This document shows positions 8,862 through 41,534 of a stretch of DNA of 64,000 nt, piece by piece. The DNA is taken from the NCBI GenBank assembly GCA_949373075.1, contig CASIBX010000017.1, positions 628-64,627 on the forward strand. The letters run 5' to 3'. The translations under genes were made by a program, and so were the position numbers. The first letter of the stretch is position 1, and every line of letters starts with the position of its first letter. The notes below the pieces were generated by a model. It saw only the letters and a list, made by a program, of their open reading frames with translations. It ran no database searches and was not told where the DNA came from. The stretch is from Candidatus Poseidoniaceae archaeon (lineage in GTDB: Archaea; Thermoplasmatota; Poseidoniia; Poseidoniales; Poseidoniaceae).

Positions 8862-10631
8862 TCAAACTCTTCGTCTAAGCTTCTCCATGAAGCCATCTGC
8901 TAATCCGAGTGATTCTAACGCTTCATCTATTCTTCCGACTTTGTGAGCCTCTTGTGCTAGGCTAATCGCTTCTTCAGTAGAACGTCTTTCTTCATCGTCA
9001 ACCTTTATTCCACTAGCATTGCATTGATTTCGTAATGTCTTCCATTCGTCCAAAACGAATTCTAATAATTCACTGGCTTCATCACTGGATTTCCCTTCTG
9101 TATCTAGGTCTTTAGTGAGTCTTCCAAGTAGGGTAGCTGCATGTGTCCACTCAAGGGAATCTGCTGCGTTTTCAATCTCTATTAGGCGCCCATTCCAGTC
9201 GGATGCGTCTTCCCTTTCTAGCCATCGTGAAATCAGATGGACCTTTTGTCTAAGGGCTCGGCGTACAACATCCATCGCTTCTCTTTCAGCAATAATTTCT
9301 CTTACAATTCCATCTGCTAGGCCCTTGGCTTGGGCATGATCTCCTGAATCAAGTGCTGCTTCAGACCTCTCAAGTCGTTCTTCTAGAGAGCCTTTGTTGA
9401 TTCCATCTGCAGATTTCAATTGTCTCGCTGCTTTCTTTACTGAATCTTCTGCTATTTCCAACGCATCTCCCGATGCAGCCAATTGGTCAGGAATTACCAT
9501 TGCAAATTCATAGGCTTTCATCGGTTTCTCAGCATACAATTTCTTTCGAGCATCTGCTAGTAATTCTTCGAGGCTTTCGGGGGCATGCTCTGATTCAGCA
9601 AGTAATAGCGAACCCTCACTGATTGCGTTCTCAGCCTTCCCCCACCATTCGATAATTTCGTTAGCGCGCTTCTTGGCTTCTCGGAATAGAGATTCTCCTT
9701 CTCTTAGGCTTCCTAATTCGACTTCACGTTGCCCCATATCCCAAGCTTTACGTGGTCGCTTTACGACAGGAGCAATCTCTTCTGCTTGATTCACAGCATC
9801 TAATGAATCAGCCTTAATCGCTTCAACATCCCCTGCCAGAGAAAGTGAACGTTCAATGTCTTCTTCAGCCTCATCAAGTAACCTCATTCCCCAACTAGGG
9901 TCACGGTGACCTTCTTCCCTAGCAGTCATGACTAAACTGGCTGCTTGGTCCACAGCAGATCCTTGACTTTTGAGAAGTAGCATGTAATTTTCTAAAGCAT
10001 TTAATCTGATGTCGAACTCTTTGCGCATCGCTCTCTGATCGTCATTTCCAAACCAATCGGCTCCGGTAAGAACGATTCCAATGCTAAAGAATGCTATTTG
10101 GACGAAAGATGAATTGTCGTCAAAACTTGAAGTCGATAATAGGGATGCTGCTAATACACAACCCATCAGCCCCATCAATGCTCTAAATTTCATTACAGCG
10201 AGTCCACCTTGCAAGATTGTTCGACTCACGCGGAATAGTGCTAGGGATACTACCAGTAGCAAGCACATCCCAACCATTTGGGAAATATCTCCCTCTAATT
10301 GTGAGATTGCTATGACCGAAATCGGCAGCCAAGAAATTGTAGCTGCAGCGCCCACTCTGGAGCGCCCTTTCTTGTCCAGTACTCCAAGGTCTTGGACAAA
10401 AATCCCCCAAGCTAGTATGATTAACGGATATCCCAGACCCGTAATTAGGGGTCCGCCATCCATTGCAGATTGCAGTGCTGGCCAAGCAAGCCAAGTGGCT
10501 GCAATTAGTATGGTGAAGGCTGATGCACTTGCCAATCTTTCGATACTATCGAGTTGGCTTTTACTCTCAGCCTCGACAGCATCTTCCAGATTTACGAAGC
10601 CATCCATATTATATCCACCACGGTTAAGCAT
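8862..10631 (-). CDS. membrane protein with polytopic N-terminal half and long alpha-helical, acidic cytoplasmic C-terminal half
   Basis: 589-aa ORF with ~7 hydrophobic helices followed by ~380 aa of E/A/L/R-rich helical sequence. It starts 1 nt after the stop of the upstream 833-aa surface-protein gene. Confidence 0.6.
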   Translation of the reverse strand: MLNRGGYNMDGFVNLEDAVEAESKSQLDSIERLASASAFTILIAATWLAWPALQSAMDGGPLITGLGYPLIILAWGIFVQDLGVLDKKGRSRVGAAATISWLPISVIAISQLEGDISQMVGMCLLLVVSLALFRVSRTILQGGLAVMKFRALMGLMGCVLAASLLSTSSFDDNSSFVQIAFFSIGIVLTGADWFGNDDQRAMRKEFDIRLNALENYMLLLKSQGSAVDQAASLVMTAREEGHRDPSWGMRLLDEAEEDIERSLSLAGDVEAIKADSLDAVNQAEEIAPVVKRPRKAWDMGQREVELGSLREGESLFREAKKRANEIIEWWGKAENAISEGSLLLAESEHAPESLEELLADARKKLYAEKPMKAYEFAMVIPDQLAASGDALEIAEDSVKKAARQLKSADGINKGSLEERLERSEAALDSGDHAQAKGLADGIVREIIAEREAMDVVRRALRQKVHLISRWLEREDASDWNGRLIEIENAADSLEWTHAATLLGRLTKDLDTEGKSSDEASELLEFVLDEWKTLRNQCNASGIKVDDEERRSTEEAISLAQEAHKVGRIDEALESLGLADGFMEKLRRRV

Positions 10632-10632
10632 A

Positions 10633-13134
10633 TCAGAATCTCGGTCCCTTTCGAGATCTAACCCATCCTATTGCTAATGCTGCAACTAATACGATACCCA
10701 ATAATTCCATCGTACCAATGCCTGTGCCGGAATGGTATTCACTGGTAGAATGTTTTACAATCGTTTGATTCGTGTCATCCAAATAGGTTAAATCTACTGC
10801 AAATGTTTCAAACCAATCAAGGTCAATTTTAATCAAAACAATAGCGGTTGTATTTTGCGAATAACTGGATGGGCCAACTATGGATTCTACGCAGACATCA
10901 TCGCTGCAAACAATAAATTCGGTAGTGCTGGCTCCATTATTTTGAACAGTTACCCAAAACTGATTCATCCCGGGCTCTATTTCGGTTGAAGAACTTGTAA
11001 TGTCAATAATCTCAAGGTTTCTTGCGATTGGTGGCGAGATTGCAACACTTACCATACTACCTCCTATATTGCCACTTTCATCGTACCCATTTATCTTGAT
11101 TTGATGATAGCCAGTCCCCAGTTCTGGAAGTTCCCAAAATTGAACATCTAACCATGACAGTCCGGAATTTACTATTCCTTGATATTCAATTGAGAAATTG
11201 ATTTTGTCAATTGAAGAATGGTCATCAAAACTTTCGGTCAAGTTGAGTCTTATGTTGTCTCCTGGACTAAACATTGCGCCCGATGTTTCCCATTCCCCTC
11301 CTTCCTTTTGAAGTTCTAAAGATCCTAATATCACAGGTCCAGAATTATCGCTTAAACGGATTGTCCAATTCCCAGAAGTACTATGTCCTACATCATCGGT
11401 AACTTCTGCATTTAACCAGTATTCTATGGGGTTTCTTGCTTTGTGCCTTTCAGTAATATTGTCATTGATTGAATTAAGATTAGAGTCGACTACGAATGAA
11501 GTATGCAAAAAGTCGCCAGTATACCACCAGTCTTCTGATTTATTACTAGTCCAGTAAACGCGTAAATTCTCATCATGGTCATCGCCAACCATCAAATCCC
11601 AATCAAAAGCTCCCGGCTCAATTACTTGAACATCTGTACTTGCATTTATCCAAGGAGTGCCTGCATCAAGGACAAATGTCCCATTCCAAGAGTCTGAAAG
11701 ACCTCCCTCATCAGTACACGTAACCATCACAGAAATATTGGAATTCATCTCATAGGAAGAAAGGTTGACTCCATGGTTATCTACCAGCCCTGATATATTC
11801 CATGTGCAATCATGTATCGATAGTGGCTCGTCTTGGATTACAGCATCAAAGTCGTAAGATGTGTTTTCCCAAGGCAATGCATAACCTTCTGCCATAGACA
11901 CTTCTGGTGCATTATTTTGGCCCAATGTGATGGTATAGTATCCTGAAACTGAAGATTCATCTCGTAGAAGAGTGAAGTTAGAACTTGAACCATCTATCCA
12001 CTCTTCTAGTGGACTTGAAAGATATTGCCAATCCCCATCTGTGGTAATAGTGAGCGGCGTAGTTTGCCTCAGGTCATTCTGGAAAGGTATTTCCAATCTG
12101 AGCAAGTTAATATTTGAACGAGATGCTGTGATTGTCCCAGTTTCATCCCAACCCCAAGTTCCTGTTGATAGGTCTATCTCAGCATCGATACTAAAATCTG
12201 AGAACGTTACTGCATTGTCATCAATAATACAACACAAAGCTTCGCTTCCAGTAATGTAAATCATAGTTTCAAGAAGGTTTTCTAATTCATTTACATCTCC
12301 ATTGAGGAATCGATTGACTTGACTATCAATGCCAGCCTGCACTCCAGGGATAAACGGTAATCCAAATCCATCACTGAACACGTGACTAGCAGTCCACAGC
12401 CCAGTAATGTCTTCATTTGGAGTTAAATTAGATGTAAATTCGAGATTGGCATTACCAGTAATCATCGAACTGTTTAGCTGTTCTCCAATCCAATCTGTAG
12501 TTGGAGGCCAAGAGGAATTACCTATAGGCAGTCCATTGAGTATAACTCTGGCAGACCATCCTCCTCCAAATTCCCCAACCGTCAAATTCCCATCTACCCA
12601 ATTCACGATTTCTCCAGAGCCTGTATGCGATGCGATAACAGAAACATCATCTGAAAAATTACCGCTTAGATTGTAGGTAGTGGTGCCGTTTGGAATCGTG
12701 ATTTGGCTCTGGCCATACCTCATTTCGCTACCCCCATTTCCAATCACCAAGACTGGAACTCCATTGGGGGCATCGATTAAGCCGTCACTAACCGGTGAGG
12801 CCCAAGTACTACCCAATACCTGAATCGTGTGGGCTCCTTCTACGGTGAAGAGGCCCTCTATGATAGGATATGCTTCCAGAACAACCGTGGTTTGGGAAGT
12901 GGGAACTGGCGGATGCCACATTACTACGTATCCTTCACAAATGGCTCTCGGTTGATACATTGCTCCAACTGGCTCATCCAATATCCTTCCAGTCCAAGGC
13001 TCGCTTAAAGTGATGTCACAATCGTTGATAGGATTGCCAAAAGGGTCCTCGACTTCGATAGCCCAACCATTGTCCTCTTCAGCCAAAGTCGAAGGAATTA
13101 GTAGGAGCAAAACTAGTACTAGCACCCTTCGCAT
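10633..13134 (-). CDS. large secreted, C-terminally anchored surface (glyco)protein
   Basis: Signal peptide MRRVLVLVLLLLIPSTLAEE. More than 20 N-x-S/T sequons. C-terminal TM helix plus a basic tail (LLGIVLVAALAIGWVRSRKGPRF). No recognisable catalytic motif. Confidence 0.65.
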   Translation of the reverse strand: MRRVLVLVLLLLIPSTLAEEDNGWAIEVEDPFGNPINDCDITLSEPWTGRILDEPVGAMYQPRAICEGYVVMWHPPVPTSQTTVVLEAYPIIEGLFTVEGAHTIQVLGSTWASPVSDGLIDAPNGVPVLVIGNGGSEMRYGQSQITIPNGTTTYNLSGNFSDDVSVIASHTGSGEIVNWVDGNLTVGEFGGGWSARVILNGLPIGNSSWPPTTDWIGEQLNSSMITGNANLEFTSNLTPNEDITGLWTASHVFSDGFGLPFIPGVQAGIDSQVNRFLNGDVNELENLLETMIYITGSEALCCIIDDNAVTFSDFSIDAEIDLSTGTWGWDETGTITASRSNINLLRLEIPFQNDLRQTTPLTITTDGDWQYLSSPLEEWIDGSSSNFTLLRDESSVSGYYTITLGQNNAPEVSMAEGYALPWENTSYDFDAVIQDEPLSIHDCTWNISGLVDNHGVNLSSYEMNSNISVMVTCTDEGGLSDSWNGTFVLDAGTPWINASTDVQVIEPGAFDWDLMVGDDHDENLRVYWTSNKSEDWWYTGDFLHTSFVVDSNLNSINDNITERHKARNPIEYWLNAEVTDDVGHSTSGNWTIRLSDNSGPVILGSLELQKEGGEWETSGAMFSPGDNIRLNLTESFDDHSSIDKINFSIEYQGIVNSGLSWLDVQFWELPELGTGYHQIKINGYDESGNIGGSMVSVAISPPIARNLEIIDITSSSTEIEPGMNQFWVTVQNNGASTTEFIVCSDDVCVESIVGPSSYSQNTTAIVLIKIDLDWFETFAVDLTYLDDTNQTIVKHSTSEYHSGTGIGTMELLGIVLVAALAIGWVRSRKGPRF

Positions 13135-14658: not shown

Positions 14659-17193
14659 TTATAATTCCAGTAACTTGGCCTTTTCACATGCCTTGAGGTT
14701 TATCCATCCAGGGAATCCTAAGTCGATTGGTACACCACCAACAGTCGCAACTAGACCAGTCATTATCAGATGATTTGCGAGCGGAGAATTAGCCCACTCA
14801 AACTTCTTCCAATCATTTCTCCCATGGCTAACCTTAGCCAAATCCTTACGAACAACCCAAGAATTGGCATTCCAAGAATGCTTCTTCATTCCATTTGTAG
14901 TGATGCTAGGTGCTGCAACAACATTGTGAGATGTGGACCAATTAATCTCCCAATCTCCATCCATTGTATCTGCCCATATTAATCCAGTAACTTCCGGTAT
15001 AGGCATATCCATTTCACCTTGGAAAGCCAGGTGAATCGCTAATCTCCTCAGATGCGGATGCCTAGGGTGTAATTTCATAGTTTTCTTTACGATATTTACT
15101 GCACTAGCAACCATGCCTCGGTCAAGATACAGTAACGCTCGTGCGGTTTGTCCATGAGGCCAAGAAATCATGTCTAGATCATTATCTTCCGCCCAGGTTT
15201 CAAGTTTGTCGAGTGCGATATCTGATTGTGACCACAGCCTGTATCTTGCGATATCCCCCAAAACTTGTAACTTACCAGCAGGGTTCATTTTCCACGACAA
15301 GTTACTAGCAGGAACGCCCTCGGAGTATCTACGAATTAAATCGATATTTCGTTTGGTAACAGGGTCTAAGCGAAGCATTAGGCGTATCTCGTTTGGTATT
15401 TTCTTTGAAGGCTCGAATATTGCGGCAATCCATCGCATTCGGGCGGCTTCAATGTCCTCATCTGCGAGTAAATTGAGCCTTGGTGCCGCTTCAGAAATAT
15501 CTCTTTGTGCTAGAGAGGATGCTGCTAGAATCAGTCGAGCGATCTCAGCGGTACGCCCTGCTCTTAATGCAAGGAATGAAAGCGCAACTTGCTCAGTTTG
15601 GTCCCAACGACCCAACCCCATCAGTAATTCCATACTCGCTTCTGTTCTTCGGACTAGAGACAAACCTTCGATGCTCTCCTCGCCATGGTCTTCGTAAAGT
15701 ATTTCCATTTTAGCAATCGCTTTTGACCATTCATCTGCAGCAATCAAATCGGTAAAAGCCTCACCTTTGCGGTAAATCATTTCTTCAATAGCTTCCAATT
15801 GTATTCGCTTTTGGTTAGCGGTTGCATCGAAGGTGATATCATCCAGCCTTTGACCAGTTCTTCTTGACATTACCCAAATCCCAAGGAATACAACTTGACC
15901 TCCTGCTGCCAACATCCAAGTCAATTCTTCAAGGGCATTTTTACTAACAATTTGACAAATCGAATTCTCCCATGTGCCACACTCAGCACCTTGTGGGAGA
16001 TATTGAGAGTCCCAGAATGTCAACATCGCCAGAGCCAATAGCAGCATTGATTGGCCTGCAAATCCCGTAAAACAGAAATTAAGAACATTGGCTTGCTGTG
16101 TTCTTTCACTACGTAGCAATCTAGAATCTGCAAGTCTGATTCCACCTTTACCAGAGACATCAGCGATATCTAAAAACAATATTCTTGCAACTTCATATAC
16201 GAATAAAAAGCCAATCACTGCTACGTTCAATAGAAGGAATAGAAGAACCATTGTAACCAATGGTACTCTGATTCCTGATTCAGATATATGCGAAAATAAC
16301 TCGATTGCATAGAACCCTAGTACTCCACCTTCTTCCATGATTGTCGACTGAGGGCGGTATTCTGGGAGTTCAAGCACACGCTGGGTATGTTCAAACATGG
16401 AAGGGTCAATGGCTAGAAGAATTAGAGACACTAGAGTGTTGAATGCAATGAATGGCATTGCTGCGGAATTCAGCCAAACTAGAGTAGCGATAACTTGTTT
16501 TCTTGCTCTTGGTTTGTAAGGATAGAATGCTGAAGGTTTTCCTTTAGACAATTGTCTACTCGATTCTACTAATGCAGTCCAAGATGAACCCATAACGCGA
16601 CCATAAGCAATGAAGCCGGGAGCGAACGCTAACAGTCCGGTTAATGCTAATCTCCTGTCCAAACCTATTCCCGCTAGTCCCATAATATACCAAAGCATCA
16701 GTAGTGCGGTAAACCATAGAATCGTAATGTTGACTCCAGTTCCACTTCTAAAGGTGCTAGCACCTTGTAATGTGGCTCGATTACCACCAGTTTTAGTAAT
16801 CAATTGTGTACTCATCGATACACCAGTGGATATCATAGCAGGGAATACAATCAATACTAATGCAGCAGATATTGAGAACATATGTAATCCCTCAGACAAA
16901 CCTAATTGATAGAATAACCATTCTACTGCAAGCAATATTGCTCCAGTTAGTGCCATCACATAGACGGTAAGTCCATTTCGCATACCCGGAGCTTTCAACA
17001 ATTTCTTTGCTTCTTCCTTATCTGCAGTTACAGTATGGACTTCGTATCTTTTTGGTCCGGTAGGGAATGCTACTTGTAATCCTGAAAGTCCTCTGGGAAT
17101 AAGATATTCTTGGAATAGATAAGCGAGACTTACAGACAATCCGATAGCAAAAAATGCCATTATGTCAAAATCACTAACCAGTTCTATACCCAT
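14659..17193 (-). CDS. large polytopic membrane protein with helical-repeat (TPR-like) C-terminal domain, unknown function
   Basis: 844-aa ORF. It has more than 10 hydrophobic helices in the first ~440 aa, then ~400 aa of soluble alpha-helical repeat-like sequence. Confidence 0.6.
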   Translation of the reverse strand: MGIELVSDFDIMAFFAIGLSVSLAYLFQEYLIPRGLSGLQVAFPTGPKRYEVHTVTADKEEAKKLLKAPGMRNGLTVYVMALTGAILLAVEWLFYQLGLSEGLHMFSISAALVLIVFPAMISTGVSMSTQLITKTGGNRATLQGASTFRSGTGVNITILWFTALLMLWYIMGLAGIGLDRRLALTGLLAFAPGFIAYGRVMGSSWTALVESSRQLSKGKPSAFYPYKPRARKQVIATLVWLNSAAMPFIAFNTLVSLILLAIDPSMFEHTQRVLELPEYRPQSTIMEEGGVLGFYAIELFSHISESGIRVPLVTMVLLFLLLNVAVIGFLFVYEVARILFLDIADVSGKGGIRLADSRLLRSERTQQANVLNFCFTGFAGQSMLLLALAMLTFWDSQYLPQGAECGTWENSICQIVSKNALEELTWMLAAGGQVVFLGIWVMSRRTGQRLDDITFDATANQKRIQLEAIEEMIYRKGEAFTDLIAADEWSKAIAKMEILYEDHGEESIEGLSLVRRTEASMELLMGLGRWDQTEQVALSFLALRAGRTAEIARLILAASSLAQRDISEAAPRLNLLADEDIEAARMRWIAAIFEPSKKIPNEIRLMLRLDPVTKRNIDLIRRYSEGVPASNLSWKMNPAGKLQVLGDIARYRLWSQSDIALDKLETWAEDNDLDMISWPHGQTARALLYLDRGMVASAVNIVKKTMKLHPRHPHLRRLAIHLAFQGEMDMPIPEVTGLIWADTMDGDWEINWSTSHNVVAAPSITTNGMKKHSWNANSWVVRKDLAKVSHGRNDWKKFEWANSPLANHLIMTGLVATVGGVPIDLGFPGWINLKACEKAKLLEL

Positions 17194-28694: not shown

Positions 28695-30446
28695 TTACCA
28701 AATGAATGGTATTGCGCTAAAGGTCAGCATGATCAATGGCATCACAATCGATTCAGTAGTTGAACGTAAGTTCGATAGGATTGAGATTTCAGTGCCTCTG
28801 TGAAGATGAACCTGCATACCGATGTCTTTGTTGCCTCTTACCACAAGGTGTGAGTTTGGTATCGCCACATCGAGTCCCTCTTCTTTGTCTGCATTGGTTC
28901 GACTCTCCACTCGACCTAAGCAATAAACAGGGTCACCAGCGGCTAGAACCCAAACAGTCCATCGCCAATTGCCACTTTGCCAATTGTATAATTGATCGCC
29001 CATGTTGACTTCGTCCCATGTATCAGGCTCGACTAATATTCCTCCTGTGCCATCGTGGAGCATGAATCTAGTAGAGTTACTATCGCTTCTTCTAGATTCC
29101 CAACTACATGATTCATTTCCATCATTATCTCTTGTGCAAACATATTCTTCTTCTTTCCATCGATAAGCGACGACCCCTTGAACCTGAAATTCAGGGTATC
29201 CTCCAACTTGAAGGTCAATAGTACCAGTTGGCGCAGGCCTCACCTGTCCTACTAATTCAGCAGCACCAGCAGCTACACTTCTCACTCGACTTGATGGTGT
29301 ATCGAGGATGTTATGCATTAGTTTCCATTTTTTCCACGCAAAGTATGTCCATGTTAATGTAAAAATGATGATGACAACTCGTAGTATCTGTCCTGCCCAT
29401 TGGTGGAAATCATCACCATGTCTTGCGAGAAGGTCACTGGCTAACCAAATGGATGTGAACACAAATACAATTCCATTAATCGAGAATAAAGTGAATGTTG
29501 CAGGGTGAGGTGTGCCAATGACATTAGGATGTTCCTCGATTAGGACGTTTTCCTCATTTGACTGATATGGATTATCAGGCCATGTTTCTAATCCAGGAGG
29601 AGGTAATACCCAGTCTGATTCATCTATACTTCTAATTGGTCCAATTGCAGATTGTAAATTACCAGGAGTTCCATGAACGAACGGGGAATTGCCCCACCGT
29701 TCTCGTAACTTTTTGATATCATTGGACATTGATGTTGGAGTATTATACATCATGATTAATGATGCAACTATAGTGATTGCTAAGCCTACTCTTTGCGCAT
29801 CTTCTCTATCTGTGCGTTCGCCAATTTTCAGCCCTTCTGCTCCCACAGAGAGCATCGAAAGTTCGCCATCCTCTTGAACCATGAACAATTTGACTACGTC
29901 TCCTTCGGCGATGTACCAGTCATCATAACCTGGGCAATTACGATTCACAGTATTTACTTCTGAGCCTAATTTGTCATGCCAGCCTAGCGTGAAAGAGTCC
30001 CCCCCTGAAATTGGTTTTACTGTTATCACAGCATTGTCATATTCATCAGTATGGTCAGTACAATTCTCTCCATCAGAATCTAATGTCCAATAGCCATGCA
30101 CGAGGACTCCTTGCTCAATTACAACATCCATTGTCACGAATGTACCAGTTCCCCCATCCCATCCTTGGCCTAAATCGACTTCATCATCTTCATCAATCTC
30201 ATCTAGATTATCTATGCTAATTGCTTCTGATACCGGAGGGACATCTGGAATATCAAGGCTAAACATCAAGAACAATCCTGCTGCTAAAAACATCATAAAT
30301 GCAATTACCCACGCTACAATTGCTTTCCAAGTATGAGGGAATGTGAATTGGAAAAATCCGTGTTGTAAGGAGGTATGGTCGATTTTCGACTTATTCCCCA
30401 TATATGCCGCTTGAGTAATTTGGTTATCATAAGACCGGCTAAACAA
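28695..30446 (-). CDS. multi-pass membrane protein with C-terminal GIDE-like domain
   Basis: 583-aa ORF. After a TM cluster comes SSRVRSVAAGAAELVGQVRPAP...FMLHDGTGGILVEPD...AAGDPVYCLGRV. This matches the pattern I associate with prokaryotic GIDE-domain proteins. The start could instead be Met16 (30401). Confidence 0.45.
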   Translation of the reverse strand: MFSRSYDNQITQAAYMGNKSKIDHTSLQHGFFQFTFPHTWKAIVAWVIAFMMFLAAGLFLMFSLDIPDVPPVSEAISIDNLDEIDEDDEVDLGQGWDGGTGTFVTMDVVIEQGVLVHGYWTLDSDGENCTDHTDEYDNAVITVKPISGGDSFTLGWHDKLGSEVNTVNRNCPGYDDWYIAEGDVVKLFMVQEDGELSMLSVGAEGLKIGERTDREDAQRVGLAITIVASLIMMYNTPTSMSNDIKKLRERWGNSPFVHGTPGNLQSAIGPIRSIDESDWVLPPPGLETWPDNPYQSNEENVLIEEHPNVIGTPHPATFTLFSINGIVFVFTSIWLASDLLARHGDDFHQWAGQILRVVIIIFTLTWTYFAWKKWKLMHNILDTPSSRVRSVAAGAAELVGQVRPAPTGTIDLQVGGYPEFQVQGVVAYRWKEEEYVCTRDNDGNESCSWESRRSDSNSTRFMLHDGTGGILVEPDTWDEVNMGDQLYNWQSGNWRWTVWVLAAGDPVYCLGRVESRTNADKEEGLDVAIPNSHLVVRGNKDIGMQVHLHRGTEISILSNLRSTTESIVMPLIMLTFSAIPFIW

Positions 30447-30527
30447 ATAAATCGCGGGCCTTTGCGAAGGTTAGAAATCCACTCTACAATCTCACATTTA
30501 AGTGTATTATTGAACAGTTACAGGACA

Positions 30528-32033
30528 ATGTTGAATATACGCCTCCTACGCCTTTTGAACATGGCAGACGTAATGGCAATGCTGAGTCAAATGCGAAACG
30601 CAAGTGGAGACATGGACACCATCGGGTTGCCAGACGATGTAATCCTAGAATTTGCTAGCCTAGATGACAAGTTAGCACAAGCAATTCAAGAAGCATCAAA
30701 AAAGCAATCCCAATACTCTTCTGAACATCTGATGATGAATGAGAAAGATCTGGTAACAATACTCCAAGAAGACTATGTCAATTTCTACGCGCCTGCTACA
30801 GTTAACCCGTATGTTGCACTTGCAGGTAGAGGCCCATGGGTTGTGACTTCACACGGTGCGGTTTTACACGATAATGGTGGATATGGAATGCTAGGTGGAG
30901 GGCATGGACCCTCAGAGATAATTTCAGTGATGAGTGAAAATCACGTTATGGCAAATGTCATGACGCCTTCATTCAGTCAAGCTCGTATGGCTGCTGCCCT
31001 GAAGAAGGAATTGGGCCACACAAGAGGTAGTTGTCCGTTTTCCAAATTTATCTGTATGAATTCTGGCTCAGAATCGATGACAGTTGCAATGCGCATTTGT
31101 GACGTTAACACTAAGAAAATGACTGATCAAGGTGGGCGTCATGAAGGCAAACCAGTGAAGCTTATGGCTATCGAAAGGGCATTCCATGGTCGCACCGACA
31201 GGCCTGCACAAATTTCTCATTCATGTAAAGCAAGTTATGACAAGAATTTGAAAACATTTGCTGAAAGAGATAATCTGATTTTAGTTCCTTCCAACAATGT
31301 TGGAGCACTTCAAGCAGCATTTGCACATGCTGATGAAAAGGGTTACTTCATTGAATCCATGTCGGTAGAGCCGGTCCAAGGCGAAGGAAACCCCGGTCAA
31401 TGTATTGAACGAGACTTTTATGATGAGGCTAGGCGGTTGACCAACGCACATGGCTCGATGTTGATTGTAGATTCAATCCAAGCAGGAATAAGAGGTCAAG
31501 GAACATTGTCTGTAGTTGACTATGAAGGATTTCAAGACGCAGAAGCACCCGACCTTGAAACATGGTCTAAGGCGTTGAATGCTGGCCAATATCCTCTTTC
31601 TGTACTCGGCTTGAACGAAAGAGCAGCAGAGTTGTATGTTGTTGGAATTTATGGAAACACGATGACTACTAACCCTCGTGCACTAGAAACAGCGGTTGCG
31701 GTTCTCGAAACAATAACTCCTGAATTACGAAAGAATATTCGTGACCGGGGTGTAGAATTTGTAGACAAGTTGAATGCTCTTGCAGAAGAACTACCAGGTA
31801 CCATAATCAAGGTACAAGGTACAGGTTTGCTAATCTCTGCAGAATTAGAACCAAGCATACTAACCGTAGTTGGTTTTGATGAAGTCGAAGTTTGGTGCAG
31901 GAAGCACGGTCTTGGAGTCATACACGGTGGAGTGAATGCATTGAGATACACTCCACATTTCAATATCACAAGTGAAGAGGTCGATCTGGTAATCGACATC
32001 ACTCGTCAATCAATCAAGCAATTTACTCAATAA
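30528..32033 (+). CDS. class-III PLP-dependent aminotransferase (acetylornithine/GABA aminotransferase family)
   Basis: Motifs GSESMTVAMRI, LIVDSIQAGIRGQG and the SKALNAG putative PLP lysine are present. The tracked start at 30375 overlaps the upstream convergent-strand gene, so ATG 30528 (or 30561) is more plausible. Confidence 0.8.
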   Translation: MLNIRLLRLLNMADVMAMLSQMRNASGDMDTIGLPDDVILEFASLDDKLAQAIQEASKKQSQYSSEHLMMNEKDLVTILQEDYVNFYAPATVNPYVALAGRGPWVVTSHGAVLHDNGGYGMLGGGHGPSEIISVMSENHVMANVMTPSFSQARMAAALKKELGHTRGSCPFSKFICMNSGSESMTVAMRICDVNTKKMTDQGGRHEGKPVKLMAIERAFHGRTDRPAQISHSCKASYDKNLKTFAERDNLILVPSNNVGALQAAFAHADEKGYFIESMSVEPVQGEGNPGQCIERDFYDEARRLTNAHGSMLIVDSIQAGIRGQGTLSVVDYEGFQDAEAPDLETWSKALNAGQYPLSVLGLNERAAELYVVGIYGNTMTTNPRALETAVAVLETITPELRKNIRDRGVEFVDKLNALAEELPGTIIKVQGTGLLISAELEPSILTVVGFDEVEVWCRKHGLGVIHGGVNALRYTPHFNITSEEVDLVIDITRQSIKQFTQ

Positions 32034-34969: not shown

Positions 34970-35049
34970 ATATTATTCCAAGAGACACTAAGCCATCAAC
35001 CTGACTATTGATTACAAATGTCGGGAAAGAGATTATATCTCAAAAGACA

Positions 35050-35751
35050 ATGTTCGATTTTATGGTAACAATCGAATGTCCTCATTGCGATGAGGAACTT
35101 GAAATGGAAGATGATGCGGTTGGTTTATTCGATTGCCCATATTGTAGTGAAGAATTTGAATGGGGAGAAGAAGACGATGAAGACTTCTTTGAAGGAATTG
35201 ATGAAGTTAGCCCCGTTAAGAATCGAGGTAAAAATACTCCGAAATCAATTTTAGTAGAGTATCCAGAAAACCCCTCACTTAGAATTACAGCTGGTGTAAT
35301 ATTTTCGATTATAATGGGAATAAATGCCATTAGTTCCCTTATGTTGATCTTTGCTGGGTTGATGGTATCCCAAGTTGAGGAAGGGATTAGCGATGCTACA
35401 GCTGGAGCGGCCGAGTCAAGTATTGGAGCAATTATTATTTTAATTGGAGTTGTAATGCTAGCACTATATTCAACTGGTGTATACTTTGGAGTACAGATGT
35501 CCAAAGGAAAATTCTCTGCATTGATTGTTTGTTCCGTAATTACTGTAGTTTCTTTAATCATGACGATTATATCATGGGCCAATGAAAATACTGATGAATG
35601 CTTGAAAACAGAGATGGGCCCATTTGGGCCTGAATGCGTTGAATATGGAAGCCCTGCTTTCCCTGTGCTTAGTGTCATTATCTGGGCTGTAATTATCGCT
35701 ATGTTTGCGTCATTGATATACGTGCCTAAATTCAGAAGTCAGTTTCACTGA
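35050..35751 (+). CDS. zinc-ribbon membrane protein (paralogous architecture to 20806..21375)
   Basis: The N-terminus is MFDFMVTIECPHCDEELEM...FDCPYCSEEFEW, followed by an acidic linker and 4-5 TM helices. The tracked start at 35008 is a TTG, so ATG 35050 is preferred. Confidence 0.6.
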   Translation: MFDFMVTIECPHCDEELEMEDDAVGLFDCPYCSEEFEWGEEDDEDFFEGIDEVSPVKNRGKNTPKSILVEYPENPSLRITAGVIFSIIMGINAISSLMLIFAGLMVSQVEEGISDATAGAAESSIGAIIILIGVVMLALYSTGVYFGVQMSKGKFSALIVCSVITVVSLIMTIISWANENTDECLKTEMGPFGPECVEYGSPAFPVLSVIIWAVIIAMFASLIYVPKFRSQFH

Positions 35752-35788: not shown

Positions 35789-37087
35789 TCATCGATTTAG
35801 AATGTAAGAGAAGAGAATTGGTGCTACAATTGTAGCATCTGATTCAATCATGTGCATAGGGGTGCCTGGTGCTAATTTACCCCAAGTTATTTTCTCACTT
35901 GGAGGGGCTCCAGAATATCCACCGTATGATGCAGTCGACTCCGAAATCTGAGCAAACCATCCCCACAGCGGTGCTTTTTCTTTCATGTCTTGTCTTAGCA
36001 TTGGTACAACACAAATCGGGAAATCACCCGCAATTCCTCCACCAATCTGTAAGAAACCAATTGGGTGTTCAGCATTCATGTACCAATCAGCCAAGTGCAT
36101 CATGTAGTCAATCCCGCTTTTGACAGCGCTCTGTTCAACATCACCTTTGATACAATGTGCTGCGAATATATTGCCCAAAGTAGAGTCTTCCCAGCCGGGA
36201 ACATAGACTGGAATACCTGCGTCTCTTGCAGCGATTAGCCAAGAATCAGTTCTAGGAATGTCCGCTTCAAGTTGATCTAAAATCGCCATCAGGTGTTCGT
36301 GAGGGAGGGCAGGACCACTCTGCCACTGCTTGAGAATTTTATCTTCAATATGTCTGATAGCCTCTTCTTCCGGAATACAAGTATCCGTCACACGGTTGAA
36401 GCCAGTTGCGTGTAATTCAGCATCTTGCTCTTCGGTCAAATTACGCCAATTTGGAATTCTTTCATAATGAGAATTAGCTACTAAATTGAAAACATCCTCT
36501 TCTAGATTCGCTCCAGTACATGTGATCGCATGAATCTTGCCCGACCTAATCATTGGTGCTAGTGAACGTCCGATTTCAGCGGTGCTCATCGCTCCTGCAA
36601 GGGTGACCATGAGCCGGCCACCTTCGTTTAGAAATTGGTCTAATGAAACTGCACAATCACGAAGTGCGCCCGCATTGAAGTGGTTGAAATGTCTGTCAAC
36701 AAAACCTCTGACGCCACCATTTACTGGACCATTAAGGAATCTCTCAACTCGCTTTCTACGGTTGATAATCATCTCTGGATAGTTAGTTTGTAGCTCCTTT
36801 TCGATAATCTCGATAATTCGCGCAGGGTCGGTTCCTCCACAGGTAAAGGCATCAATAGCAAGCCAACCACTTTCAGAATAGCAATGAGCACTAACGTGAC
36901 TCTCATCCAGTAAAACAACTGCTGCGAAACCTAGTGGTGATACACTACCGTCAAACTCCTCATTGTGAGAATGTACTCTTCGTGCTCCTGATGCATCAAC
37001 TGCTTTTTCCATTAGCGCTAGCATCCATGAGCCTTCGACGCCAATAGCGCCTTTGCAGTCGAGCATAATATGAGCGCCATGTGCCAT
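35789..37087 (-). CDS. fusion protein: SpeD-type pyruvoyl-dependent decarboxylase (AdoMetDC-like) N-domain plus deoxyhypusine synthase-like C-domain
   Basis: Residues 1-~110 (GAHIMLDCKG...GFAAVVLLDESHVSAHCYSESGWLAIDAFTCGGTDP) match the prokaryotic AdoMetDC fold, including the E-S self-processing site. Residues ~125-432 (VTLAGAMSTAEIG...ITCTGANLEEDVF...QIGGGIAGDFPI...EKITWGKL) match the DHS family. An AGGAG motif lies 9 nt upstream, inside the agmatinase 3' end. Confidence 0.75.
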   Translation of the reverse strand: MAHGAHIMLDCKGAIGVEGSWMLALMEKAVDASGARRVHSHNEEFDGSVSPLGFAAVVLLDESHVSAHCYSESGWLAIDAFTCGGTDPARIIEIIEKELQTNYPEMIINRRKRVERFLNGPVNGGVRGFVDRHFNHFNAGALRDCAVSLDQFLNEGGRLMVTLAGAMSTAEIGRSLAPMIRSGKIHAITCTGANLEEDVFNLVANSHYERIPNWRNLTEEQDAELHATGFNRVTDTCIPEEEAIRHIEDKILKQWQSGPALPHEHLMAILDQLEADIPRTDSWLIAARDAGIPVYVPGWEDSTLGNIFAAHCIKGDVEQSAVKSGIDYMMHLADWYMNAEHPIGFLQIGGGIAGDFPICVVPMLRQDMKEKAPLWGWFAQISESTASYGGYSGAPPSEKITWGKLAPGTPMHMIESDATIVAPILFSYILNR

Positions 37088-37091
37088 TTAA

Positions 37092-37982
37092 TCAACTCCT
37101 ATTTGCAATAAATGCTGCAGTAATCTTAGTTGCTATCATAGCAGCTGTAAATTGAGTGAGAGGTGTATCCTTTTGCGGAACAATCTCATTCACATCGGCA
37201 CTTATGACTTCACAATTTGCGAACGCAGTCTCTATCGTTTGAACTACATGCCAGAAAGATAGCCCGCCTGGAACTGGAGTTCCTGTAGCCGGAACTAATG
37301 AACCATCAAGCCCATCAATATCAACCGTCAAATGAACAGGCCCTTCGATTTTGGAAATGGCTTCAATCCATTCATTCCAAGACTTTGAACCAGTAATTGG
37401 ACTCATGACGTCTTTAGCAAACCAAGTATTTACTCGCTCATCATTTTCAATATAGTCTCGCTCTTGACTACAATATGCCCTAATGCCAACTTGGTGAACT
37501 CCTATTGCGCCTTCATCAAGAGAACGTGCAATCGCACAAGCATGAGAATATGGCTCGCCATCTAATTCATCTCTCAAATCTGCATGTGCATCGATTTGAA
37601 TCAGGGTTACCTTCTGTGGACATCCCCGTAAGATACCGGGGAGCATTCCGTGCTCCCCTCCTAAAAATATTGGAAATGCTCCACTTGAATACTGTTCTTC
37701 AGCATATTTGCCGATACCATCTAATTGCTCTTGTAGCGAACTACCTTCCCCATCCCAGGGCTCAACAGTACGTATTACTGCTCCTGCCGGCAATTCTTCT
37801 CCTAGTAAATCGTCAAACAATTCAACTTGTCCTGAAGCAATGATACAAGCAGCAGGTCCTTCTGAAGTTCCTTGGCCATATGAGGTCGTTAATTCGTATG
37901 GGATGGACGCGATATTGACATCAGAATCGCCTCCAGAATCGGCTAAACCGAGGAAATTACCCTCAACAAACCCGTCATCCAT
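37092..37982 (-). CDS. speB: agmatinase / ureohydrolase family protein
   Basis: The Mn-ligand motifs GGEHGM, IQIDAHADLRD and LTVDIDGLD are present. The gene lies 4 nt upstream of the fusion gene. Confidence 0.85.
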   Translation of the reverse strand: MDDGFVEGNFLGLADSGGDSDVNIASIPYELTTSYGQGTSEGPAACIIASGQVELFDDLLGEELPAGAVIRTVEPWDGEGSSLQEQLDGIGKYAEEQYSSGAFPIFLGGEHGMLPGILRGCPQKVTLIQIDAHADLRDELDGEPYSHACAIARSLDEGAIGVHQVGIRAYCSQERDYIENDERVNTWFAKDVMSPITGSKSWNEWIEAISKIEGPVHLTVDIDGLDGSLVPATGTPVPGGLSFWHVVQTIETAFANCEVISADVNEIVPQKDTPLTQFTAAMIATKITAAFIANRS

Positions 37983-38125: not shown

Positions 38126-38548
38126 ATGGGAATGACAATGGCAGAACTAACTGAAGCAATTCGTCAACACATCGACATGGAGATGGATCCAGAAGTCGCT
38201 TGTGGTATGGCTGAGCACGCATTGGGATTCTTTGGATTTTACGATAGAATCATCGATAATGCCCTAGAACCAACAGACCGCAACCTGTTTTACATGTTTC
38301 AAGATTATGACCTTCTAACAACCGAATCTGAAGAAACTACTCTTTGGGATGGTCGAGAGTGGAGGATACACTACTGGCGCTTCAAGCCAGAACTGCGCGA
38401 GCGTGTTGAAGCATACATGAATCGCGAAGTGGAAGTTGTAGAAGTCGACCCATTCGGCGACGTATACGGCGATGCTGGCAGTATCTGGATGAGAGAAGGC
38501 GACAAGCCTCGTAACCCGAACGCCTTCACATCGGACCATTGGGGTTGA
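38126..38548 (+). CDS. hypothetical cytoplasmic protein (140 aa)
   Basis: Clean ORF with GGTGAT 3 nt upstream of the ATG. No motif was recognised. Confidence 0.5.
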   Translation: MGMTMAELTEAIRQHIDMEMDPEVACGMAEHALGFFGFYDRIIDNALEPTDRNLFYMFQDYDLLTTESEETTLWDGREWRIHYWRFKPELRERVEAYMNREVEVVEVDPFGDVYGDAGSIWMREGDKPRNPNAFTSDHWG

Positions 38549-38594
38549 ACACGGCCCCACAAGTCTTGAAGACTAGCAGGCCCACCAGTTGGCT

Positions 38595-41534
38595 ATGAAG
38601 GCAAGGGCAGGTCTGCTAATTCTTCTTTTTTTGACATCACTCATTCCAATTGTGAATGCTGATGAATCTAACTCAGTGGCCATAAATGTCGATTGGACAG
38701 GCGGCCACGCATACATTATCACAGGTGATGTGAATCTTTCAGAGATAAGTGTAAACCATTTGCACGACGGTTTGGAACTTGATACCGGAGTTATCTATGA
38801 CACAACAGGAGATAACCTTCGAATTATTCTCAATACCACTTTATCTCATGGTGATACAATCACTGTAAATGCAGGAGAGGTTTCACGAGCGGTTACTGTG
38901 GGTATTTGGGGTCAGCCATTAGCTGACCACGAAGTGACCCTTGATTCTAATTGGGAGATGGATCAGCAGTGGGAAAATGAAAACGGCTCACAAAAATACA
39001 TCTTAGTATTCAATGGCCAAGGTTGGCAACAAAGAATTGGCGACACACTTGACTCTTGGGAGATGGGGAACGGCACTCTGACCGTTCTTTCCAACACTGC
39101 CGAAAATGGTCTATCTCTGATGTTAGATTTAGATTCGGTTTGGAAAAATGAAACAACAGTCAATGGAATTATGACTGGCCAAGTATTCGATGCTAGAGGA
39201 AGTGGAGTTATCGGACTTAATGATGAGACTGAAGGCGCAGTTGATATTCAGGGTGTGGTCAGTGACGCATGGATAAACCGGTCCATGGTGAATGGTATTG
39301 TAGATGAGAGATTTAGATTAGAAGCCAATGGGTCAATCTCAATTCTTTCCGATGATGATGATGAGAGGATGGACCTCTCAGGAGAATTAGCAGTACTGCT
39401 AATCGAAACATGGGATTCAAACGGTACTAGGCGACTTTCACATACTCAGTTTGAAGCTACAGCAGACTTAATTTTGGATACAAACGATAGCAGAATGGAT
39501 ATTTCCTTAGACACTTTTGAATCCATAGAAAGATGGGAAGATGGAGAGAGAGTTGACCAGATGAGTAAGATGGTAGGACATGGTACGTTTGGTTTCTCAG
39601 GAGAGGATGAAAATGCCAGTGTTCAGATAAATGGTACAATCTATGATTTCCACCAAGAGCAAGAAGATGGTTTGGTAACGGTCGACAACTTACATGTTGA
39701 TGGATTGATTACAGGAGATGCTCAAGGTAACTTTGGTGTAGTAAGGACCATTGAAGACTCCACAATGCAGGCTAACGATACTGGAGTAATGTATGATGTC
39801 ATTATCGTTCACCAAGAAGATTGGTTCAATCTTACTGGAATTTCCGCACTTCCTAATTCAGACTTAGGCGCAGGGGCCCACCACAATGAATCTTGGTCAT
39901 ATGATTCTAAAGAAGCGCATTGGGATAACCGTACAATTCGGACAGTTTGGAGCCAAACAGGGCCTGACCCAAGTAGCGGTGATGAGATTCATACTAATTC
40001 CCCATTACAAAACCAGTTAGAGGCTCCAACGGTTGAAGAAGGCCTTGGTGATGTAACTATTAGTCGAGAATCAGGATTTGCTCCAACAGATGCTGCAACT
40101 GGTGATGTTTTTACTCTTGACCATCAAGAAGGTATGGCACTAACTGTTACAGCAGGAGAGGCACAGATTGTTGCAATGGATGGTCACATGGTCGATACTG
40201 TTGTTTGGTCTGGAGTTTATTCAACCGATGTAAGTGGAATTGCTTCTGGTAATTTGATTATTGATGGTCCTCTATCCGGTTTGAATGTTCAAATCAATAG
40301 AGCATTCCAAGTCGAATTCGGAGAAGATGGACAAATGGTTAATCTGACAGAGAATCAATCTGTCAACAGAGTTTTGTCACCTTCGATTATTTCAGTTCAC
40401 GATAATAACGCTCCAAGTATAGATTTGATCACTCTAGCACAGGGCGTGGTTACTGGAGAAAACGGAGCACCTGGATTCATAGAAGTAACGGTTTCAGATA
40501 TCGATTTCAATATAGACTCAGTAATCGCAGATACTTCTGCAATAGGTGGTACTTTCATTATTCTAAATGACAAGGGGCTTTCAGGGGACAGGGTTATCGG
40601 CGATGATATCTGGACTGCCGAAATAGCTGTGCCGGGGCTTGAGTTTGGAGACCTTCCCATCAATGTAACAGTGACTGATGTGTTCGAGGCATCAGATACA
40701 AATTCGACAAATATAACCGTTCTTAATCAACCACCAAGGTTGACATCGATTGAAATTGTACCTTCGATAATTTCTCGTGGTGAAATTATGATAATCAATG
40801 CAGAAGTTTACGATGGTCATGGCGTATCGTCGGTTTCAGTTGATATGCGAGATTACGGGGGAGAACTTTCGCAATTGAATAAAATTGGAGATATTTGGGC
40901 AGGGCAAGTTCTAGTTCCAGATGGAATGAGTCCCGGTGAACGAAATCTAGCGATCAGAATGGTTGATGCTTTTGAATCAACAATAACGGTTGATAGAACA
41001 ATAACTTCCGGTCTTTACCACATACAGTCAGAGAATGATGAAGATATTACTGTCACAGTTCTTAATGAGCCTCCGCAAATCGATATTGGAGACTTACGCA
41101 AGATTGAGTTAGGCGATGAAGATGTTGAATATAACTTAACAATAACAGTGGCAGACCATGATGGTCTTAATTGGGTTAAAGTGAGGTTAGGAAACCTTGC
41201 GCCTCCTGGCCAATCTACAACATGGTATACAATGTCTGCCAATGGGGATGGAACTTACTCTAAGCAAATCACAATAAAGAAATACATAGCACTTGGCACT
41301 CATGAACTACTTGTGAAAGCTATGGATTCCTATGGTTCTCAAACCGCTGAAGAATCAATCCCTATCATATTGGAGGGACCAGATAACCCGGTTTCCTCTG
41401 ACGGGCCTTCTAGCAGTACGCTCACTTATGTTGCATTAGGCGGCTTAGGAATACTCGTGATTGCAGGTGCTGCAGTTTATATCATGCGTGGGTCTGATGA
41501 AGAAGGTGGCCTAGGTGGCTTTGGGGACGCTTGA
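38595..41534 (+). CDS. large secreted, C-terminally anchored surface protein with tandem Ig-like repeats
   Basis: A signal peptide (MKARAGLLILLFLTSLIPIVNA) and many N-x-S/T sequons are present. Three ~100-aa repeats lie near the C-terminus. A C-terminal TM helix is followed by a short tail. Confidence 0.7.
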   Translation: MKARAGLLILLFLTSLIPIVNADESNSVAINVDWTGGHAYIITGDVNLSEISVNHLHDGLELDTGVIYDTTGDNLRIILNTTLSHGDTITVNAGEVSRAVTVGIWGQPLADHEVTLDSNWEMDQQWENENGSQKYILVFNGQGWQQRIGDTLDSWEMGNGTLTVLSNTAENGLSLMLDLDSVWKNETTVNGIMTGQVFDARGSGVIGLNDETEGAVDIQGVVSDAWINRSMVNGIVDERFRLEANGSISILSDDDDERMDLSGELAVLLIETWDSNGTRRLSHTQFEATADLILDTNDSRMDISLDTFESIERWEDGERVDQMSKMVGHGTFGFSGEDENASVQINGTIYDFHQEQEDGLVTVDNLHVDGLITGDAQGNFGVVRTIEDSTMQANDTGVMYDVIIVHQEDWFNLTGISALPNSDLGAGAHHNESWSYDSKEAHWDNRTIRTVWSQTGPDPSSGDEIHTNSPLQNQLEAPTVEEGLGDVTISRESGFAPTDAATGDVFTLDHQEGMALTVTAGEAQIVAMDGHMVDTVVWSGVYSTDVSGIASGNLIIDGPLSGLNVQINRAFQVEFGEDGQMVNLTENQSVNRVLSPSIISVHDNNAPSIDLITLAQGVVTGENGAPGFIEVTVSDIDFNIDSVIADTSAIGGTFIILNDKGLSGDRVIGDDIWTAEIAVPGLEFGDLPINVTVTDVFEASDTNSTNITVLNQPPRLTSIEIVPSIISRGEIMIINAEVYDGHGVSSVSVDMRDYGGELSQLNKIGDIWAGQVLVPDGMSPGERNLAIRMVDAFESTITVDRTITSGLYHIQSENDEDITVTVLNEPPQIDIGDLRKIELGDEDVEYNLTITVADHDGLNWVKVRLGNLAPPGQSTTWYTMSANGDGTYSKQITIKKYIALGTHELLVKAMDSYGSQTAEESIPIILEGPDNPVSSDGPSSSTLTYVALGGLGILVIAGAAVYIMRGSDEEGGLGGFGDA
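40473..41380 (+). repeat. three tandem ~100-aa Ig-like modules inside the surface protein
   Basis: Module boundaries are marked by ITVLNQPP (about nt 40720) and ITVTVLNEPP (about nt 41050). Each module has a V.D..G...V.V....G....L...GD.W pattern. The coordinates are approximate. Confidence 0.35.

Follow-up and report, generated by a model that had tools for sequence, protein, structure and literature searches.

Does a compact archaeal gene pair, in which a pyruvoyl decarboxylase is fused to a deoxyhypusine synthase (DHS)-like enzyme, encode a whole route from arginine to a polyamine, and if so, in which order do the steps run and does the DHS-like part keep its catalytic lysine? The question is raised by a minus-strand locus in a 64,000-nucleotide stretch of contig CASIBX010000017.1 (positions 628 to 64,627; hereafter the window) from a Poseidoniaceae (Marine Group II, MGII) archaeon. 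An earlier note, made from the DNA letters alone, had read the pair as leading from arginine through agmatine and putrescine to aminobutyl transfer by a domain that seemed to lack this lysine. We find the lysine in place, and we propose as the probable reading that two genes encode three activities, leading from arginine to agmatine, N1,N9-bis(guanidino)homospermidine (G44G, caldomycin, diagmatine) and homospermidine. The features concerned are as follows.

37092..37982, minus strand: arginase-family ureohydrolase gene, 296 aa (open reading frame (ORF) listing, Pfam)
37096..37100, minus strand: AGGAG Shine-Dalgarno-like motif within the 3' end of the ureohydrolase gene (read off the sequence)
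35789..37087, minus strand: single ORF of 432 aa, SpeDA-type pyruvoyl decarboxylase domain plus SpeY/DHS-like domain (ORF listing, Pfam)
36737..37087, minus strand: N-terminal SpeD-like domain, aa 1-117, proposed pyruvoyl arginine decarboxylase (SpeDA)
36899-36901, minus strand: Ser63 codon, cleavage/pyruvoyl site
36884-36886, minus strand: His68 codon
36875-36877, minus strand: Ser71 codon, in place of the proline diagnostic of S-adenosylmethionine decarboxylase (AdoMetDC)
36839-36841, minus strand: Cys83 codon
35792..36736, minus strand: C-terminal DHS-like domain, aa 118-432, proposed agmatine-coupling SpeY type, 'GGGIAGDF' subfamily
36023..36028, minus strand: Gly354-Asp355 codons, equivalent to human Lys287-His288 (Lys-Asn in characterised-type SpeY; alignments)
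35876..35878, minus strand: Lys404 codon, equivalent to catalytic Lys329 of human DHS and 'Lys299' of T. thermophilus CdmS (alignments)

Both genes are translationally coupled within one operon, as the earlier note had described: the ureohydrolase stop codon (TGA, 37094-37092) is followed by a 4-nt gap (TTAA, 37091-37088) and the ATG of the fusion (37087-37085), with the AGGAG motif of the upstream gene 8 nt from that ATG. Profile searches recover Arginase in the first protein (1.1e-48) and both AdoMet_dc (aa 20-108, 5.4e-16) and DS (aa 137-428, 5.4e-40) in the second, where the motifs ESHVSAH, FTCG, TGANL, GGGIAGDF and WGKL fall at residues 62, 81, 191, 349 and 402, respectively. An AlphaFold2 model of the fusion, built on a 38-sequence alignment, has two well-folded domains (mean predicted local distance difference test (pLDDT) 89.4; predicted template modelling score 0.74), and only the linker at about 111-140 and the loop 386-389 are modelled less confidently; Foldseek matches the C-terminal domain to deoxyhypusine synthases only (template modelling score 0.70-0.77, normalised to the target). 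Since ORFs, Pfam, AlphaFold2 and Foldseek agree, the descriptive part of the earlier note, including the single 432-aa frame, its quoted motifs and its domain architecture and boundaries, is correct. The loop at aa 386-389 (about 35921-35932), the sole modelled segment with pLDDT below 50, belongs to the SYGGYSG loop bearing Tyr388, which occupies the position of NAD-site Asp313 in human DHS.

The fusion has become fixed within a lineage. The same fused ORF occurs in at least 14 species-level genomes, from Poseidoniaceae, other Poseidoniales and one member of the Thalassarchaeaceae, the closest match being a Candidatus Poseidoniales single-cell genome at 98% identity, and the ureohydrolase gene lies directly upstream in 14 of 14 Poseidoniales loci. 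Within a collection of 5.8 billion proteins, 92 of the best 120 clusters at 90% identity are fusions (404-487 aa, 53-99% identity). The concern that two genes had been joined by an assembly error is removed by this recurrence in 92 clusters and in 14 independent Poseidoniales metagenome-assembled genomes (MAGs) and single-cell genomes, and the survey that the earlier note had called for shows a lineage-wide architecture.

Unfused relatives indicate how it came about. In the loci L081-L083, whose DS-only protein (P0102) is 64% identical to the DS domain of the window, the order is DUF6015 (divergent), Arginase (313 aa), AdoMet_dc (127 aa), DS (315 aa), Peptidase_M14 and Peptidase_M17, and the window has the same flanks (DUF6015 at 38126-38548, M14 at 34969-33587, M17 at 33590-32034). 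The SpeD homologue of L081 ends in ...DRFGEAMTDG*, its stop overlapping the DS start by 8 nt, and the window fusion reads through that junction as ...VERFLNGPVNGGVRGFVDRHFNHFNAG. From this overlap and read-through it follows that the fusion arose when adjacent, overlapping speDA and speY genes merged in frame.

Two further proteins carry the domain combination. P0126 (453 aa; MEC8460675.1, from a 'Pseudomonadota bacterium' MAG, 78-kb contig) is a bacterial SpeD-DS fusion with a DS part at 49% identity and the motifs ESHASAHYYQE, GGGVSGDF and WGKI; because it stands in a bacterial MAG, such a fusion may have occurred more than once or been transferred. P0122 (756 aa, on a 2.5-kb Joint Genome Institute (JGI) metagenome contig) combines AdoMet_dc (aa 78-157, ESHISAHCYSD) with an NNMT/PNMT/TEMT-like methyltransferase fold (aa 175-402) and a GGGIAGDY-type DS with WGKL, behind an N-terminus that resembles a eukaryotic transit peptide (MLSKLLRAAAVRRLPALVRAF...). 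The protein may represent an algal form of the fusion; according to Li et al. (JBC 2023; PMC10407285), stramenopile SpeDA genes fall in one clade with those of MGII.

The N-terminal domain is assigned to the class 1b AdoMet_dc fold (Pfam PF02675, 5e-16), and its Ser63, His68 and Cys83 sit at the same residue numbers as in the AdoMetDC of T. maritima. According to PMC10407285, true AdoMetDCs always possess a particular proline that SpeDA proteins lack; here HCYSE stands in place of HTWPE, in all fusions and in the retrieved standalone MGII homologues with a processing motif. Standalone SpeD homologues of Poseidoniaceae share 55-61% identity with the domain, and the same paper reports two MGII homologues, AIF02979 and DAC51064, to be arginine decarboxylases that are inactive on ornithine and lysine; an E. 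coli speD deletion strain does not regain spermidine synthesis with them. When ten standalone homologues from Poseidoniaceae were looked up by cluster, neither of these assayed accessions came up, only other ones, e.g., DAC45585 of the same Third Party Annotation series. We conclude, in line with the earlier note, that the domain is probably a neofunctionalised pyruvoyl arginine decarboxylase, with S63, H68 and C83 present and the AdoMetDC proline absent. A role as bona fide AdoMetDC was considered and is unlikely because that proline is missing, the AdoMetDC equivalog model TIGR03330 scores below its cut-off (65.4 against 75.65) and no speE lies nearby.

For the C-terminal domain, the first point to settle is the lysine. 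Lys329 is catalytic in human DHS and His288 its invariant proton acceptor/donor (PMC7226451); PDB entry titles, e.g., that of 8a0f, also name Lys329 as catalytic. Counted from both ends, residue 329 of the 369-aa human protein is the K of SWGKIRVDA, 40 residues from the C-terminus, and other published active-site numbers likewise fit their residues (E137, D238, D243, D313, D316, E323, W327 and D342). The human segment GGGVVKHH, in turn, contains K287/H288 and not K329. The earlier note had aligned this segment with GGGIAGDF, which is correct, but had taken its lysine for Lys329. For comparison, the human, Arabidopsis, T. thermophilus CdmS/SpeY and Cylindrospermum SpeY sequences were taken from Supplementary Figure 1 of PMC10981699; the CdmS numbers in the text of that paper (Lys299, Glu293, Phe204, Leu286) equal the supplement positions plus five (K294, E288, F199, L281). 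In MAFFT, phmmer (to 8put) and clade-profile alignments (all solved DHS structures), Lys404 pairs with human Lys329, and by the same three methods Gly354/Asp355 pair with Lys287/His288. Further correspondences read from alignment are these.

Glu398: human Glu323, CdmS Glu293
Trp402: human Trp327
Asn306: human Asp243
Tyr388: human Asp313
Tyr391: human Asp316

The segment EKITWGK404L is thus kept in the fusion protein. Among 377 clade members whose C-terminus is complete, 368 have an ExxxWxK motif and the other nine look frameshifted. The loss of the lysine was a numbering error: Lys329 is the SWGK lysine, which aligns with Lys404, and Gly354, once named as its counterpart, matches Lys287. The comparison with characterised DHS and SpeY proteins that had been suggested as a check shows the residue conserved, the very outcome that the earlier note had named as refuting its reading. 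A domain unable to form an enzyme-imine, for which the GGGVVKHH/GGGIAGDF pairing had been the only argument, therefore has next to no probability, and the locus gives no support for a lysine-independent DHS mechanism.

Which branch of the DHS superfamily the domain belongs to is indicated by its scores and its active site. It scores SpeY two to three times above DHS in phmmer (Cylindrospermum SpeY (CsSpeY) 87.5 and CdmS 76.3 bits, against 36.9 for Arabidopsis DHS (AtDHS), 25.3 for human DHS (HsDHS) and 27-39 for archaeal DHS), and it falls far under the DHS models TIGR00321 (88-90 bits, cut-off 304), NF002630 (103-105, cut-off 364) and NF002006 (97-98, cut-off 434). A tblastn search of plasmids for named SpeY sequences returned only haloarchaeal and cyanobacterial 'deoxyhypusine synthase' matches at 22-24% identity. 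The NAD-site residues Glu197, Asp301 and Asp417 are retained, both spermidine-binding aspartates, whose role is to hold the aminopropyl end, are gone (Asp243 to Asn306, Asp316 to Tyr391), Asp355 replaces the His288 general base, and the TGANL motif and an insertion after the GGG motif are SpeY-type traits.

Might the domain nevertheless act on aIF5A, transferring an agmatine-derived guanidinobutyl group onto the hypusine-site lysine, with the agmatinase-like enzyme trimming the product to deoxyhypusine as in the Haloferax volcanii model? The catalytic lysine is kept, no canonical dhs was found in the window, and in many Euryarchaeota genes for agmatinase-like enzymes are grouped with aIF5A and dhs, in agreement with the agmatine-based Haloferax model (PMC5178350). 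We nonetheless consider this very unlikely: close homologues with an identical active-site signature occur widely in bacteria, where aIF5A does not exist, the cluster and the window contain no aIF5A gene, the 'invariant' His288 is absent, and the scores lie far under those of archaeal DHS equivalogs. If complete Poseidoniaceae genomes have no other DHS homologue, the fusion enzyme might also supply aIF5A modification.

The route that we favour would begin with self-cleavage of the N-terminal domain between Glu62 and Ser63, yielding a beta chain about 62 aa long and an alpha chain that starts with the pyruvoyl group and runs on into the C-terminal domain; the prediction of the earlier note that processing leaves the alpha chain (63-432) joined to the transferase domain follows from this site. 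The N-terminal domain would then decarboxylate L-arginine to agmatine (SpeDA activity). The NAD-dependent C-terminal domain would oxidise one agmatine, bind the 4-guanidinobutylidene group to Lys404 through an imine, transfer it to a second agmatine and reduce the adduct to G44G, from which the upstream arginase-family enzyme would strip both urea groups to give sym-homospermidine. Substrates and step order are inferred from published homologues and from the tendency of fusions to join consecutive steps, and the domain identities, conserved processing and catalytic residues, operon, synteny and conservation of the fusion are observed here. SpeY/CdmS of T. thermophilus couples two agmatines into G44G, as do the assayed SpeYs of six other, diverse bacteria (Ca. 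Fonsibacter, Caldilinea, Capsulimonas, Ca. Sericytochromatia, Rhizorhabdus and Winogradskyella), and SpeY-linked SpeB homologues cleave G44G and not agmatine (Kobayashi et al. 2024, PMC10981699; Li et al. 2026, PMC13625781). With its speB, arginine decarboxylase (ADC) and SpeY content, the archaeal operon equals known homospermidine clusters. The compact arginine-to-polyamine unit proposed by the earlier note is upheld by gene content and this literature; its order of agmatine, putrescine and aminobutyl transfer is probably wrong, as SpeY couples agmatine itself and the agmatinase homologue acts last (PMC10981699; PMC13625781).

The upstream enzyme is an agmatinase homologue and a proposed bis(guanidino)homospermidine ureohydrolase ('DUH'). 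Its score on the agmatinase model TIGR01230 is slightly short of the cut-off (160.7 against 174.3 bits), its closest solved structure is the agmatine ureohydrolase 3pzl of Thermoplasma volcanium (1.9e-28), and its binuclear-Mn ligand motifs GGEH, DAHADL (DAHxD) and DIDGLD (DxDxxD) align with those of 3pzl. Such likeness does not discriminate between substrates, because any SpeB homologue assayed also hydrolyses G44G (PMC13625781). A putrescine route, in which a canonical agmatinase makes putrescine and the DHS-like domain condenses it with putrescine or agmatine to homospermidine or mono-guanidino-homospermidine, could appeal to the relationship with 3pzl, a bona fide agmatine ureohydrolase, to the near-cut-off TIGR01230 score and to the Gly-Asp, Asn306 and Tyr391 differences from tested SpeY, which permit another donor or acceptor. 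It is an unlikely route: the fusion would couple the first step with the third, skipping the one between, all seven tested SpeYs use agmatine, eukaryotic DHS and bacterial homospermidine synthase (HSS) make no G44G, a canonical agmatinase would compete for the SpeY substrate (PMC13625781), and the agmatinase likeness is indecisive for the reason just given.

Several points count against the homospermidine route itself. The ureohydrolase may prefer either agmatine or G44G, and the C-terminal domain is just 25-28% identical to CdmS and CsSpeY, scores far below two NCBIfam SpeY-type models (84-85 against 500 and 119-121 against 450 bits), and has Gly-Asp where SpeY has Lys-Asn as well as Tyr388 at the NAD-site Asp313 position. 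Accession look-ups and homologue searches tied no GGGIAGDF member to any biochemically assayed SpeY, and most bacterial members have no adjoining polyamine gene. Within the window, no speE, other arginine or ornithine decarboxylase, aIF5A, second DHS or polyamine transporter was found; the window is a part of the genome, and a second agmatinase, a canonical dhs or a speE may lie elsewhere.

The C-terminal domain belongs to a large, uncharacterised subfamily outside every curated model, whose recognition is new. The motif [IV]GGGIAGDF is present in 80 of 80 genome loci (66 bacterial DS-only genes among them), and a GGG[IA][AS][GA]D-type motif in most intact full-length representatives at 50% identity, down to about 37-40% identity; the GGGxPKN motif, with Lys-Asn at human positions 287/288 as in CdmS and Cylindrospermum SpeY, is not present, GGGIAGDF standing instead. 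The 66 bacterial members are 52-61% identical to the window domain, share its active-site signature and come from Meiothermus, Thermonema, Chitinophagaceae, Rhodothermales, Gemmatimonadota, Bdellovibrionota, Planctomycetota, Verrucomicrobiota and others. On every curated NCBIfam DHS/SpeY equivalog, where cut-offs are 300-500, the domain from the window and three members from bacteria reach only 83-121 bits, and PGAP names clade members 'deoxyhypusine synthase family protein'.

Around the 66 bacterial members no SpeD-like gene was found, profile search included; an arginase-family neighbour stands in just five bacterial loci, some planctomycete and gemmatimonadete ones among them; and Pfam scans of the neighbours in Flavisolibacter, Meiothermus, Thermonema and Bacteriovorax loci gave unrelated genes only. 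Because most bacterial members adjoin no polyamine gene, it is mainly the archaeal lineage that supplies evidence from context. Searching the literature for polyamine profiles in genera that carry the clade returned just one table, for planctomycetes, in which sym-homospermidine is the major polyamine of Isosphaera and Gimesia (PMC4334474); this is compatible with the proposed function as a correlation only. In Gimesia maris a characterised SpeDA stands beside speY, and homospermidine is the only major polyamine; a search for homologues of a Planctomycetaceae member, bearing on whether the G. maris speY is of GGGIAGDF type, gave MAG-derived names only.

A subfamily of this kind might instead carry out a reaction unlike that of DHS or characterised SpeY, with another guanidino- or amino-polyamine as product and Asp355 in acid-base catalysis. 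The position outside all curated equivalogs, the consistent and strongly conserved signature (G354, D355, N306, Y388, Y391) and the very abundant, uncharacterised clade that PGAP names only by family would suit it. We judge it improbable, as the closest characterised relatives are SpeYs, the archaeal operon is the exact ADC, SpeY and SpeB set of known homospermidine clusters, and planctomycetes related to clade carriers have sym-homospermidine as major polyamine (PMC4334474), again a correlation only. As a more general conjecture, which we would call conceivable but doubtful, the GGGIAGDF homologues, abundant in Planctomycetota, Bacteroidota, Gemmatimonadota, Bdellovibrionota, Deinococcota and Marine Group II, could be a third DHS/SpeY branch whose chemistry or product may differ, and agmatine may pass from the pyruvoyl to the NAD site within the fusion.

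The surroundings of the operon are partly conserved, and the rest of the window consists of ordinary archaeal housekeeping genes. The DUF6015 gene (Pfam 2.9e-100; plus strand in the window, 3135-3533 in L081) is divergent from the operon in fused and unfused loci alike, and beyond it a protein of about 1000 aa without Pfam match (window 38589-41534, L081 1-3073) continues the conserved synteny. Between the fusion and the M14 peptidase gene lies a 247-aa ORF (35008-35751, plus strand) with a CxxC...CxxC zinc-ribbon-like N-terminus, an acidic linker, several predicted membrane helices and no Pfam match; the unfused L081-L083 have no gene there. Three genes from the operon, at 30375-32033 on the plus strand, is a class-III aminotransferase whose Pfam Aminotran_3 match covers aa 146-544 and is preceded by some 145 aa of N-terminal extension without matches. 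The Aminotran_3 family includes putrescine, ornithine and γ-aminobutyrate (GABA) aminotransferases. Five large minus-strand ORFs (583-1043 aa; 4227-7358, 8862-10631, 10633-13134, 14659-17193 and 28695-30446) lack a Pfam match at 1e-5, the last having been scanned at a threshold of 1e-3, and are typical of poorly annotated Marine Group II proteins.

The agmatine-coupling homospermidine route was worked out only in 2024-2026 and only in bacteria. A natural fusion of the arginine decarboxylase to a DHS homologue in an archaeal group that ranks among the most abundant of the surface ocean is Rosetta-stone evidence for agmatine as the substrate of this enzyme there, and it offers one construct for testing the whole route. 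It also flags a large and abundant DHS-like subfamily that is annotated as 'deoxyhypusine synthase' or 'family protein' and has no curated model. What is new here is the fusion architecture and the recognition of the subfamily, and its extent is modest.

Finally, the locus can be placed among known systems. Canonical DHS (EC 2.5.1.46; human 6XXJ, archaeal 8PUT and 7CMC) shares the fold, the NAD-site residues and the equivalents of Lys329, Glu323 and Trp327 with the window domain, which differs in His288 to Asp, Lys287 to Gly, Asp243 to Asn and Asp316 to Tyr, is only 17-22% identical, is fused to a decarboxylase and has close relatives in bacteria without aIF5A. With SpeY/CdmS it shares the DHS fold, the catalytic Lys and Glu, the loss of both spermidine-binding aspartates, the TGAN motif, the post-GGG insertion and the linkage to an arginine decarboxylase and a SpeB-type ureohydrolase; SpeY has Lys-Asn at 287/288, Phe/Met at 243, Leu at 316 and Asp/Thr at the Asp313 position, whereas the window has Gly-Asp, Asn306, Tyr391 and Tyr388. 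The SpeD1-SpeD2 (AdoMetDC-ornithine decarboxylase) fusions of Li et al. 2023 likewise join a pyruvoyl SpeD domain to another step of the same pathway and yield a chimeric chain after cleavage, but here the partner is an NAD-dependent DHS-fold enzyme and there is one pyruvoyl site, not two.

The nearest system is the speB-speDA-speY cluster of the MGII/III fosmid KM3_15_H06 and Ca. Poseidoniales isolate 70165 (PMC10407285), in which the same lineage brings the same three protein families together. The searchable text of PMC10407285 and PMC13625781 does not mention a SpeDA-SpeY fusion; the latter, of 2026, leaves it as a question whether DHS homologues that depend on agmatine are encoded in archaea. 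The unfused relatives L081-L083 show the Arginase, AdoMet_dc and DS order together with the flanking genes of the window, and the SpeD homologue of the published cluster has the same SpeDA signature as the window domain. The locus is thus the fused form of an already published MGII speB-speDA-speY cluster, whose unfused form the earlier note had missed, and it differs from that cluster in that speDA and speY are one 432-aa ORF rather than two overlapping genes.

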